This document shows positions 10,495 through 14,645 of a stretch of DNA of 64,000 nt, piece after piece. Under the pieces are notes generated by a model. The model saw nothing but the letters and a program-made list of their open reading frames with translations, was not told the origin of the DNA and did not search any database. Within the stretch, counting starts at the first letter, position 1, and every line of letters starts with the position of its first letter. The stretch lies in the NCBI RefSeq assembly GCF_054482525.1, contig NZ_CM137006.1; one strand, 5' to 3'. The position numbers and the translations under genes were made by a program.

Positions 10495-13400
10495 GGAGTA
10501 ACAACGTTTGCAGGTATTGACCACCAAAGAGGTGGTGCAAGTGAAGGTATAAATCGAATCACTCTATATATAACATACCCTGCGCCAATTGTAGCACCAG
10601 TTGCAAGAGCCGCATCAGTAGTTGATAGCCCGGAGGTTTTGCATGACAGATCTTTACTTGGTTCTGGCTCGAAACCATATTTTTTTGCACATTTCTTAAT
10701 GCTATTTGGTGCTGATGAGTAATCCTCACCATGGGACATACCTCCAAATTCCCCCATTACACCACTCCCATTTTTACACTCCCAATGCAAATGTCTTCCG
10801 TCACCAACAGCATCGCCATCTATTCGGATTCGACAACCTTTACCACAGTCCTTCCATTTTCCTGAAGTATGAGCTAATCCCAATGGATCAATCCATTGCA
10901 CAGGATTGTTCATAACATAACTGTACGGGTTTATTCCCCCCGCCAGCCCTATCGGGTCCTGGATGATATACCGCCCCTGCAACGGATCGTAGTACCGGTG
11001 ACGGTTATAATACAGCCCCGACTCCTCATCGTGTTGCTGCCCTGGCAGACGGTACGGCTGGTGCAGGTGATGCGGGTTTTCCTCATTCAGCAGGTTGCCC
11101 CATTCATCATACTCCCCGCTCCACGCCGTATTGCCGTCTTCGCTGATGAGCGCCAGCGGCAGGCCCCGGTGGTCGCAGTGGTAAAGATGAACTTTTCGCG
11201 CCGGTGTGTATTCCGGCTCCACCTGTTTTTCCAGTTGCTCCACCGTCAGCCCGCACTGCGCAAGCCACGCCCGGCTTTCACTGCTCACGCGGTCTGCCCG
11301 GATTTCCCCCTCCAGCCTGTCCAGCAGCCGCACCAGTTCAGCCGGGAACACCACGCTGTGTCCGTCCTCGCTCCCTTCCTGCTGGAGCTTCTCCGCCAGG
11401 CTCCGCCGCTGCGTTTTCTCCCGCTCGCCGTTGTCTGTTTCGATGCGGATGAGCGGTGTGAAGCTTCCCGGCTCGTATACCGTCTGGATACGTGTGCTGT
11501 CGGTCTGCACCGTCGTCAGGTGGTCGCCGTCCCAGCCGTACCACGTCACCTCCGGTTTACGCGACAGCGACATCCACCCCGTCAGGTCACGCTCCCGCCG
11601 CCATACCCGTTTCGCCATTCGCCGTCCCAGCGGGTCGTAGAGGTAGCGGCTCTCGACCAGTGGCTCTCCATGCTGTATCCGCGTGTAGAACACCAGGCGG
11701 TGCTGGCTGTCGTAGTGGTGGGTCCGCTCGTCGTCCGTCCGTATCACACCCGCCGGGATGCGGTCCGTCTTCTCCGTCAGCCTGCCGTATTCATCGTGGC
11801 GGTAGACATAGTGCGCATCCTCCGCGATGCGGTTATCCGGCCACACTGTGAGTGTACTGTCCGGGTGCAGCTCCGGGTCCGGCAGCCGGTTGCCCGCCGG
11901 GTCCGTGGCATACGGGATGCGGATGTCCAGGTCCGGTGCGAGGGTGCGCACGCTCTCCAGCCTGCCCGTGGCGCTGTAGCCGTATTCCCGCGTCTGTCGC
12001 GGGCCGCTGATGCGCACCAGGTCGCCGTTGTCATTCCACCCGTAGTCACGGTCATACACCAGGCTGTTCAGGTGCTGACTCTGTAACTGACCTGCGGGGG
12101 TGTATGTGCTGGTCAGTTCATATGCGGAATTACTGCCTGCCATGCTGCCGAAGCTGCGCACCGTCTCACGGTGCAGCCTGTCCCGCGTATACTCGACCAG
12201 CGGCGTCCCGCCCAGCTTCATTCCCGCCAGGTAACCGCTGCCATACGTCAGCCACTCCACCGGCGGCAGGCTGTCCGGCGTGACGCGGTTTGCCAGCCCC
12301 TGTTCGTTGTATGCCTGTTTCGTCTCATGCTGCCACAGCAGTTCCCCCGTCTCCGGGTTCTTCAACGTCTGGCGCTCACTGGTCAGACGGCCTTTATCGT
12401 CATAGCCGTAGTGGACCGCCACACGGTGGCCTTCGCTCAGGTGGCTGATTTCTCTCAGCCAGCCGTGGCCATCATACTGCCACTGCTCTGCCGGTTCGCC
12501 GTTCACCGTGCGGTGAGTGAGGCGGTCCGATTCATCGTAGTACCAGAGGATGACAAGCCCCTCATCTTCACTCTGCGTGAGTTTTCCGGTCAGGTCATAA
12601 TGATAACGTTGCGTCCGCCCGTCAAAGCCGCCCTGCTGTACCAGCCGGTCCAGTGCATCGTAGCTGAAGGCGCTGTCACTGCCGTTCTCGTTGGTCAGCG
12701 TGGCGACACGCCCTGCCGCGTCATACTCCATACTGCGCGTCAGCCCGCCCTGCGTGGTGCTGACCGCCTTTCCCCACGCATCGTACTGTGTCTCGCTCCG
12801 GTTGCCGTCCGGGGTGATAACGGCAGTCAGGTCGCCTGCGGCGTTGTATTCATACCGCGTTTCACGGCCCTGTGCGTCTTTCACCGAGGTTAACCGGCCA
12901 CGGTTGTCATAGCGGCGGTAAAGGCTGATGCCATCCTCACGGTGGACCGCCGTCATCTGACCAAAGCGGTCGTATTCATAGCGGGTCTGGTAGCCCGAGC
13001 AGTCGGTGAACGCCAGTAACTGACCGTAGCGGCTCCACGTCATCTGCCGGGTGCTGCCCGTCGCATCTGTTGTCGTGGCCGGTAATTCACTGTGCGGATT
13101 ATCATAAGCATACCGGATGACGTCCCCACTGCGCGATGTCTCCGATACCAGCCTGTCCCGCTCATCATACGCCCGGCGGCTCTCCAGCCCGTCCGGGTAC
13201 ACCACCGCCGTCACCAGGTTCCCGTCGTTATAGTAAAATTTCGTCTCCCGCCCGTCCGGCGTGGTGATGTCCGTGATGTCGCCTGACACCACATTCAGAC
13301 CGTACTCTGTCCGCCGTCCCGCCGCGTCCGTCTGCGCCGTAAGCCGCCCCACCGGGTCATACCCGCTGCGCGTGACGCTGCCGTCCGCCAGTTCTTTTTT

Positions 13401-14645
13401 CACCACCCGCTTCAGCCCGGCCCCGCCTTCTGTATGCAGCACCTCACGCCGGTTCAGGCTGTCCGTGACGGTGATGCGGTCCTGCTCATACTGGTAGCGG
13501 TAACTCAGGCCTGCCGGGTTCAGCTGCTCCACCACCCGCCCCGCATCGTCGTAGCGGTAGCGCATCTCCGGCCTTCCCGCGTAACGGTGCGCCACCATCC
13601 GGCCCGGGTGCTGCGCGTCATACGTGAAAGCGCGCACCTGCGTATTGCTGCGGTCATATACCGCCAGCAGTTCACCGGCTTCCGTATACGTGTACCGCAC
13701 CAGTGGCGCACCGGGCAGGCTCTCCGGGTATGCCGGGTCGTGCATCAGCCACACCGCCGAAAGACGGATGCCCCTGTCGGGGCCGTATTCGGTACCGGGC
13801 AGTGTGTCGGGGAACGCTGAGGCTGAGAGAGGGCGGGAACGGTCAGAAGAAGATAGCGAAGAGGTGCGGGCCTCTTCCGCACGCTGCGCCTGCGTGGTCA
13901 GCACCAGACGGAACTCCCGCCCGGCACCGTCCGTCACGCCGGTGATTTCCCCGGCCAGGTCACCGGCGGCCTCACGCCGGTACGTCAGCGTCCGCCCGAA
14001 GCGGTCCGCCAGCCCGGTAAGCACCCGGTACGGCGGCAGCGGCGCTGGCAGTACGTCCTCAGCACCCGGCACCCGCTCAGACCACCCCAGTATCCACCAC
14101 GGTCCCTGTGCGCTGTTGGTCGCCAGGTAAAGATGCGGGCTTAACCGGATATCCGGCGACAGCGCCCCCCACAGCCGCGCCAGCGTGTGGCCGTCCGGCT
14201 GCGCTGCCTTACCACCGCGAACCAGCCACATTGACTCGCTGCGGCTGTACACCGCCTCCCCCGGCAGCAGCGGCTCAAAGTGAATGCTCCGCCCGCCGTT
14301 GTCGTTGAGTATCAGTCCGTCATCACGTAGCTGTAAGCGGATATCAGAAGGCGCTTTCCAGCCGGGGCCGAAAACGCCCACCGGCGCAGGCGTCTTCGTC
14401 CGGTAGCTGCTGTAGGTGCGGGAGAGAATGAACGGCAGCGGGCCGGGCAGCGCAACATCCGTCTCGCCGGGCAGCACCTTCGCCCCCAGCAGCGGATTTA
14501 CCGGGTTGCCCGAAGTCATCCCGCCCGGACACACCGAGCACGCCACGCCGGTGGGCGCGCCAATTCTTACACCTGCCGAACCCTGGACAATGGGACCGCC
14601 ATACTGAGTCATATCTCCCTGACGCGCCGCTGGTTTTCCGCTCAT
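10491..14645 (-). CDS. rhsE: PAAR-domain Rhs protein with YD repeats and polymorphic C-terminal toxin
   Basis: 1384 aa. N-terminus [29 protein letters not shown] is the PAAR-like Rhs N-terminus; many YD repeats; core ends at [19 protein letters not shown] followed by a 126-aa AT-rich tip. aaggaa ribosome-binding site before the ATG. Confidence 0.9.

Follow-up and report, generated by a model that had tools for sequence, protein, structure and literature searches.

Rhs elements have been defined since the early 1990s by a G+C-rich core followed by an A+T-rich core-extension, and the displacement of Rhs tips was worked out by 2009–2014. Here we describe an element of this kind in a 64,000-nucleotide (nt) stretch of contig NZ_CM137006.1 (NCBI RefSeq assembly GCF_054482525.1), called the window throughout. 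Its rhs gene switches from high to low G+C content (GC) near the 3′ end and is overlapped by long stop-free frames on the opposite strand. We consider it highly probable that the locus is a classical Escherichia coli Rhs element at the RhsE site, composed of a GC-rich core and an exchangeable AT-rich cassette, and that its antisense open reading frames (ORFs) are not genes. The switch from GC to AT is the long-known junction of the conserved Rhs core with a swappable toxin/immunity cassette, and the observation and its reading are both correct, both being already known as textbook features of Rhs elements.

The closest description is that of Jackson et al. (2009; PMC2935791), which covers C-terminal displacement, dissociated tips and a GC peak-and-trough signature at the boundaries. 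The same paper gives the Hill laboratory's definition of an Rhs element as a G+C-rich core with an A+T-rich core-extension of 130–177 amino acids (aa); the core-extension in the window, at 147 codons, lies inside this classical range. The locus resembles the elements described there in that (i) the same tip and immunity pair is fused to a core here and dissociated, with a short core stub, in E. coli ATCC 8739 and (ii) a GC peak and trough mark the boundaries in both. We find no difference of substance; the ATCC 8739 locus has two dissociated tips and is of the RhsD/E type. Dissociated tips comparable to these are found among the orphan rhs genes of Salmonella (PMC7043789).

Among the E. coli Rhs elements (RhsA–H), the RhsE locus of E. 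coli K-12, of the RhsD/E subfamily, occupies the same chromosomal site, from yncH to ydcC/yddH/nhoA, and both strains show a G+C-rich core, an A+T-rich core-extension and an adjoining H-repeat/ISAs1. The core in the window is full-length and accompanied by vgrG, whereas vgrG and the opening ~2.2 kb of the core are missing from K-12, and the Tox-WTIP cassette found here is replaced in K-12 by the rhsE tip and ydcD. Homology to K-12 resumes upstream at position 16888, so that a single deletion accounts for both absences in K-12. With the Rhs effectors of type VI secretion systems (T6SS), such as Photorhabdus Tre23-Rhs (PMC8636562) and P. protegens RhsA (PMC8765631), the locus shares a vgrG immediately upstream, a YD-repeat shell, a double DPxGL region and a C-terminal toxin. 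It differs from them in that vgrG carries an in-frame stop and Pfam finds no PAAR domain.

Composition of the rhs gene and its surroundings

The N-terminal 1257 residues of the rhs product match the NCBIfam RHS_core equivalog NF041261 over profile positions 1–1261, scoring 2704.5 bits against a cut-off of 2000. Pfam recognizes 12 RHS_repeat stretches (E = 1.6e-72) together with an N-terminal DUF6531 and an RHS domain, TIGR01643 matches five stretches and TIGR03696 spans residues 1179–1257; a double DPxGL region lies at the shell/toxin boundary. The nucleotide sequence of the core is 77–96% identical to those of K-12 RhsA–E and of the main ATCC 8739 core, with 94–96% identity to K-12 RhsD and rhsE.

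The composition break in this gene is confirmed and far beyond chance. Sliding-window GC runs at 0.61–0.70 over positions 11000–14600 and at 0.26–0.33 over 9800–10600. The protein-level core (codons 1–1257) has a GC of 0.637 and a third-position GC (GC3) of 0.765, and the protein-level tip has a GC of 0.438 and a GC3 of 0.250. Divided at the composition break instead, the core has a GC of 0.640, with 0.66/0.49/0.77 at the three codon positions (GC1/GC2/GC3), and the tip a GC of 0.43 and a GC3 of 0.26. Genes of the flanking chromosome lie between these extremes (GC 0.51–0.55, GC3 0.51–0.65). The core differs from the 1026-nt cassette at 9918..10943 (GC 0.354; chi2 = 270, p = 1e-60) and from the rest of the window, where GC outside core and cassette is 0.505 (chi2 = 253, p = 5e-57). 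When all 64 kb are scanned in 400-nt intervals, every interval with a GC of at least 0.60 starts within 11001–15801, and those with a GC of 0.36 or less occur only at 8001–8401, 9501–10301 and 16901–17601, within the same island.

The preliminary description of this DNA had called the Rhs core markedly GC-rich and the tip, immunity gene and flanks AT-rich. Sliding GC, the GC3 of 0.77 and the chi2 tests bear out the former statement. The latter holds for the tip, the immunity gene and the immediate flanks, but not for vgrG (GC 0.55) or the chromosomal genes (0.51–0.55); the flanks that are AT-rich consist of intergenic DNA, the ISAs1 element (GC 0.41) and the DNA lying upstream of vgrG (GC 0.36). 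Uniform composition, named there as the finding that would speak against a break, is ruled out by the sliding-window GC and by change-point analysis of GC3.

Position of the junction

Two measurements place the DNA-level junction in the same short segment. A single-break likelihood analysis of GC3 puts the change after codon 1241 (position 10923), with a log-likelihood gain of 73.7 and a GC3 of 0.77 before and 0.26 after this codon; applied to all bases, change-point analysis gives position 10936. We also compared the 3′ part of rhs by BLASTN with K-12 rhsA, B, C and D, with the K-12 rhsE pseudogene and with the main rhs of ATCC 8739. In all six cores, DNA homology stops at codons 1234–1241 (positions 10944–10924), after the first DPIGL, and the composition change-point falls within ~20 nt of this end.

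At the protein level the core extends further. The RHS_core model reaches residue 1257 and the PxxxxDPxGL motif occupies residues 1248–1257, which places the DNA-level junction ~20 codons before the protein-level core end. The last 20 codons of the protein-level core have a GC3 of 0.40, compared with 0.72 directly upstream, and this drop at the core end is common to all seven Rhs genes compared. Amino acid identity to other Rhs proteins over these ~20 codons is only 40–45%. One extra codon in this cassette puts an ungapped comparison anchored on the last DPxGL out of register further upstream; from that comparison we use only the figures for the last 20 codons and the GC3 values. Since both homology and composition end at codons 1234–1241, every cassette supplies the last ~20 codons of the core in an AT-rich version of its own. 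For annotation, this means that the DNA recombination junction lies ~20 codons upstream of the boundary drawn at the protein level at PxxxxDPxGL.

Distribution of the cassette and its attachment to different cores

We surveyed 5426 complete E. coli genomes for the core and the cassette. Core-containing matches occur in ~3900 of them, at a median of ~6 places per genome. The tip and immunity cassette is present in 404, and in 403 of these it is 95–100% identical to the one described here. A probe across the junction, which requires the tip to adjoin at least 365 nt of core, was covered over at least 80% of its length in no more than 47 genomes. With 47 of 404 carriers showing this arrangement, the cassette is mostly not joined to a long stretch of core, and the records inspected or listed suggest that it is detached or truncated in most carriers. 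In this strain, then, the Tox-WTIP tip stands in an expressed position on a full-length core, and in most carrier genomes it is apparently a silent orphan.

ATCC 8739 carries such an orphan. Downstream of its full rhs gene, into which IS1 has inserted, lie two orphan modules, and the second is the cassette described here. The orphan begins with a core stub of ~107 nt, which shows 23 mismatches to the core of the window in its first 80 nt and is ~79–81% identical to RhsD/E-type cores and 75% identical to RhsA–C; from position 10962 onwards the orphan is ~99% identical to the window. A divergent stub followed by a nearly identical cassette indicates that this cassette has been attached to at least two core lineages. 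From the alignment, the crossover that formed the present gene probably lies at roughly 10935–10963.

The ATCC 8739 locus (L003, 7021..9589; syntenic with window ~9900..10950) is also a compact example of a decaying tip array. The IS1 insertion in the tip of its main rhs lies 11 codons after DPxGL, and the two orphan tip/immunity modules are followed by a group II intron reverse transcriptase gene (ltrA) beside a truncated ISAs1.

The same site in K-12 shows a different cassette between the same flanks. Homology to K-12 extends on the core side to position 10944 and resumes at 9917 in ISAs1; between these points K-12 has 2249 nt of unrelated sequence (the rhsE tip, ydcD, yncO and yncI), as against 1026 nt here. 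The tip of the window is unalignable with the K-12 tips, at 36–46% nucleotide identity. Salmonella enterica and Hafnia alvei have Rhs fragments containing relatives of the tip with 80–83% aa identity. The homologue search returned 20 proteins, all from close enterobacterial relatives, and so gives little information on where the cassette ultimately came from. Independent origins of core and tip, with which the break had been considered consistent, are thus supported by the ATCC 8739 orphan, by the K-12 cassette and by the tip relatives elsewhere.

Antisense reading frames over the core

Long stop-free antisense frames, exemplified by a 396-aa ORF, had been reported over the core and judged almost certainly not to be genes. 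The frames are present, and the judgement is supported by a permutation null, by breaks of the frame in RhsA–D, by substitution counts and by the lack of a family match. A stop in the antisense frame that is aligned with the codons requires a TTA, CTA or TCA codon on the sense strand. These codons number 13 in the 1257 codons of the core (1.0 per 100), compared with 8 in the 127 codons of the tip (6.3 per 100). As the core uses G/C-ending codons and leaves these three almost unused, gaps of 300–400 codons between antisense stops are expected.

The longest antisense stop-free stretch observed is 402 codons. We compared this length with three null models: (i) the same protein with its own codons permuted among synonymous sites gives 291 ± 75 codons (P = 0.085), (ii) the same protein with the codon usage of the host genes in the window gives 160–189 codons (P = 0.002) and (iii) a random sequence of independent, identically distributed bases with the base composition of the core gives 210 codons (P = 0.005). 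The length of the 396-aa ORF fits the first of these and neither of the others, and is thus explained by the codon usage of the core and only by that. In PMC3454372, Merino 1994 and Silke 1997 are cited for codon usage as the cause of long antisense ORFs in frame −1. The present case resembles the shadow ORFs of that paper in that the longest ORFs are codon-aligned antisense frames of a GC3-rich gene, and we see no difference between them.

Comparison with other Rhs genes points the same way. In RhsA, B and C the longest open stretches of the antisense frame are 221–261 codons and are located elsewhere. RhsD has a break in the frame at codon 1210, and only the near-identical RhsE-type cores (K-12 and ATCC 8739) leave it open. 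Codon changes relative to RhsA within the ORF region are 114 synonymous and 81 nonsynonymous when read in the sense frame and 18 and 177 when read in the antisense frame; in the rest of the core the corresponding counts are 231 and 195 (sense) and 30 and 396 (antisense). The antisense pattern within the ORF equals that outside it, and the 396-aa ORF shows no sign of coding constraint.

The TTG with which the 396-aa ORF starts falls within the variable cassette (10896 < 10935) and is preceded by no clear Shine–Dalgarno sequence. A promoter/terminator scan finds no plus-strand promoter-like site directly upstream, its one useful hit being the terminator-like hairpin that follows the candidate immunity gene. 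The predicted product is rich in V, R, L, P and A, as expected from reverse-complemented GC-rich codons. Neither Pfam nor NCBIfam gives a match for it, and Pfam gives none for the 240-aa ORF. The 396-aa ORF is uncalled in RefSeq in four records of the same locus: E. coli PCN033, K-12 (where only the 3′ half of the core is present), ATCC 8739 and elppa4. Judging by sequence, the antisense ORFs are a statistical by-product of core codon usage, not genes, and should not be annotated as such.

Predicted toxin tip, candidate immunity protein and proposed delivery

In the mechanism that we propose, the full-length rhs would encode a T6SS-type polymorphic toxin assembled from two modules. The ~3.7-kb GC-rich core would specify the YD-repeat shell, and the ~1-kb AT-rich cassette would specify the last ~20 core codons, the 127-aa tip and the 114-aa candidate immunity protein. 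Homologous recombination in the final few tens of core bases would have brought the modules together, in keeping with the C-terminal displacement or orphan-tip mechanism. By analogy with the family, the shell would enclose the tip, cleavage would occur at the DPxGL region and delivery would take place on the VgrG spike. The tip ends in a Tox-WTIP domain that is predicted to insert into membranes, and the product of the 114-aa ORF would protect against it as the immunity protein.

The Tox-WTIP match (PF15654; positions 10494..10613) scores 47–51.5 bits against a cut-off of 25, and the RVIR (RxxR) and WWSIP (Wx[ST]IP) motifs can be read in the sequence. Zhang et al. (2012; PMC3482391) predict Tox-WTIP to be a two-helix pore-forming toxin domain with RxxR and Wx[ST]IP motifs. 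The tip differs from that domain in that only the C-terminal half of the profile (positions 36–79 of 79) is matched and in that the N-terminal 85 aa form a separate Cys/His-rich subdomain. Hydrophobicity is limited to one moderate region of ~35 aa, residues 86–121 of the tip (Kyte–Doolittle 17-residue mean of at most 1.26), a value to be read with half of the profile matched. A sequence search of the PDB with the tip gave no match at E ≤ 1.

The tip has a composite structure. Its N-terminal ~85 aa (CGKGC...GRHLHWEC) have no match in Pfam or among PDB sequences. This subdomain is joined to a different hydrophobic C-terminus in one protein (P0010), and the Tox-WTIP tail is joined to an unrelated N-terminal region in another (P0020).

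The 114-aa ORF accompanies the tip in PCN033, ATCC 8739 and elppa4. From its position we infer that it is a candidate immunity gene. Its GC is 0.270 and its predicted product is soluble and acidic and lacks a hydrophobic segment; neither Pfam nor NCBIfam yields a significant match for it.

A T6SS effector linked to VgrG is recognized by an intact adjoining vgrG together with a PAAR-type N-terminus. Here, vgrG contains a single in-frame TAG at 15045..15047 (codon 592), and Pfam detects no PAAR domain at E ≤ 0.01; the N-terminus of the Rhs protein may be PAAR-like below the detection threshold. The vgrG is annotated as a pseudogene in PCN033, elppa4 and SCU-102. In the PCN033 record, CAG stands at the site of the TAG, but there is one base fewer at ~15207, and the resulting frameshift splits vgrG into the published 'vgrG2' (541 aa) and '1588'. 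Both vgrG lesions are present in elppa4, together with a frameshift in rhs. In SCU-102, an identical 2131-nt vgrG with the TAG, annotated 'internal stop', is part of the main T6SS cluster (hcp-vgrG-rhs). The defective allele is thus common to two loci, presumably shared through gene conversion.

In PCN033, deleting vgrG2 and 1588 of this locus gave no antibacterial phenotype, and the copy in the T6SS cluster, equally split, was required for antibacterial activity (PMC6363058). A requirement for a pseudogene is odd; polar effects on the downstream rhs could account for it.

Alternative explanations for the break and the antisense frames

Rhs tips are often described as hypervariable, and the core and tip might have a single origin, the tip having become AT-rich and divergent through rapid evolution in place, under diversifying selection, or through its amino acid composition. 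Amino acid content does contribute, since GC1 and GC2 differ between core and tip too, but the greatest contrast is at synonymous third positions (0.77 compared with 0.25), and homology ends abruptly with no gradual decay. The conservation of the cassette in 403 of 404 genomes and at 80–83% aa identity in other genera shows that it is not fast-evolving, and it occurs away from a full core on the stub of another core lineage, while an unalignable cassette lies between the same flanks in K-12. We regard a single origin as very improbable. A separate question, compatible with modular exchange of tips, is why the core is GC-rich. Its GC could be held high within E. coli by a local force, for example GC-biased gene conversion among paralogous cores, rather than being the relic of a GC-rich donor. 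The cores are indeed multi-copy, with a median of six matching places per genome, and according to Jackson et al. (PMC2935791) rhs composition tracks that of the host with the core above the tip (67.7% compared with 46.4% in Serratia marcescens). When third-position changes on the RhsD/E-clade branches are polarised with RhsA–C as the outgroup, however, 39 run from G/C to A/T and 14 in the reverse direction (binomial p = 0.0008), which implies an equilibrium GC3 of ~0.50 compared with 0.77 now. This gives no sign of a drive towards G/C, and a GC-rich import in slow decay would fit the pattern. In the flanking host genes, the very few changes run in the same direction as in the core (9 compared with 2), which makes the polarised test weak and leaves amelioration and ordinary AT-biased mutation unseparated. 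Maintenance of the core GC by gene conversion seems unlikely to us, although it has a better claim than a single origin of core and tip.

A few long antisense ORFs are reported to be translated in bacteria (PMC8850804, PMC9927249), and the 396-aa ORF could be a real overlapping gene like those described in Pseudomonas aeruginosa and enterohaemorrhagic E. coli. It is the longest unannotated ORF of the region, its frame of 402 codons exceeds the null mean of 291 ± 75, and no stop interrupts the frame in the RhsE-type cores of K-12 and ATCC 8739, which are close relatives. Its length is nonetheless not significant (P = 0.085), each of RhsA–D has the frame interrupted, and the 18 synonymous and 177 nonsynonymous changes follow the same pattern as the core outside the ORF. 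The TTG start in the variable cassette without a clear Shine–Dalgarno or promoter-like site upstream, the want of a Pfam or NCBIfam match, the V/R/L/P/A-rich product and the silence of four RefSeq records also speak against a gene, and of all the alternatives we give this one the least credence. Two more speculative proposals, which are independent of each other, are long shots: that the 396-aa ORF, open in RhsE-type cores, is a translated young overlapping gene that obtained its start from this tip cassette, or that the Cys/His-rich subdomain of the tip acts as a toxin or targeting module not yet described, with recombination moving it independently of the Tox-WTIP membrane hairpin. Some observations do weigh against the classical Rhs element with non-coding antisense frames that we prefer. 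The premature stop in the adjoining vgrG means that delivery from this locus may be defective, and a soluble, acidic protein without a family match is not the first expectation for immunity to a membrane-acting toxin. For the antisense frames, 402 codons lie in the upper tail of the null built from the core's own codon usage (P = 0.085), and all but one of the 13 stops in the aligned frame come within the first 854 codons, making a mild extra depletion in the 3′ third possible.

Chromosomal context and neighbouring features

The chromosome of E. coli PCN033 matches the whole window at ~100% by megablast. The element occupies the RhsE site of the chromosome and is flanked by ansP/yncG/yncH and, at its other end, by ydcC/yddH/nhoA/yddE/narV. 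All genes of the island are on the minus strand, in the order vgrG, rhs, 114-aa ORF, hairpin and ISAs1/H-repeat with ydcC; the RefSeq annotation of PCN033 gives vgrG, RHS core protein, hypothetical protein and ydcC. Outside the island, the 64-kb window consists of ordinary E. coli core chromosome and does not include the main T6SS cluster. Coordinates of the features are collected in Table 1.

Table 1. Features of the Rhs island, in coordinates of the window
Feature	Position	Strand	Remarks
rhs coding sequence	10491..14645	minus	1384 aa
Rhs core by DNA homology, codons 1 to ~1234	10944..14645	minus	GC 0.640, GC3 0.77
Final ~23 codons of the protein-level core, ending PxxxxDPxGL	10875..10943	minus	Assigned to the cassette on composition and DNA homology
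Variable C-terminal tip, 127 aa plus stop	10491..10874	minus	Cys/His-rich N-terminal subdomain, then Tox-WTIP region
Candidate immunity gene, 114 aa	10120..10464	minus	GC 0.270; hypothetical protein WP_001279013.1
Terminator-like hairpin	10053..10084	minus	From a consensus scan only
Exchangeable cassette (core end, tip, immunity gene and hairpin)	9918..10943	minus	GC 0.354; 1026 nt
396-aa antisense ORF, TTG start	10896..12086	plus	Codon-aligned frame; judged not to be a gene
240-aa antisense ORF	12171..12893	plus	Codon-aligned frame (12171−10491 divisible by 3); judged not to be a gene
128-aa antisense ORF	13434..13820	plus	Codon-aligned frame
vgrG (T6SS spike), 703 codons	14712..16820	minus	Pfam Phage_GPD, Phage_base_V, Gp5_trimer_C
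ISAs1-family element (H-repeat of classical Rhs elements)	8609..9936	minus	Carries ydcC, 8638..9774

Over the 15 kb compared, the window differs from the deposited PCN033 sequence by four single-nucleotide polymorphisms and one 1-nt insertion or deletion. These lie at window positions 5886, 9843, 11133, 15047 and ~15207, the last being the 1-nt insertion or deletion. The DNA thus comes either from a very close relative or from a different assembly version.

The ISAs1 transposase carries the Pfam domains DDE_Tnp_1 (PF01609) and DDE_Tnp_1_assoc (PF13808), and the element is bounded by 30-nt imperfect inverted repeats (8609–8638 and 9907–9936) that are 70% complementary. An Rfam scan of 7000–19000 gave no match at the gathering score. 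The terminator-like hairpin directly 3′ of the candidate immunity gene has a perfect 14-bp stem with only three G–C pairs, followed by a T-rich tail, and sits inside the cassette ~135 nt from its ISAs1-side end.

Two AT-rich segments flank the island. Between yddH and ISAs1, 650 nt (7987..8637; GC 0.335) are without an annotated gene and are not homologous to K-12 at this place; K-12 and ATCC 8739 carry pptA at that position, which appears to have been lost or replaced in the window. Upstream of vgrG, the segment 16821..18420 (GC 0.356) contains homologues of yncH (DUF5445) and yncG (glutathione S-transferase), both of which are frameshifted pseudogenes in the PCN033 annotation.

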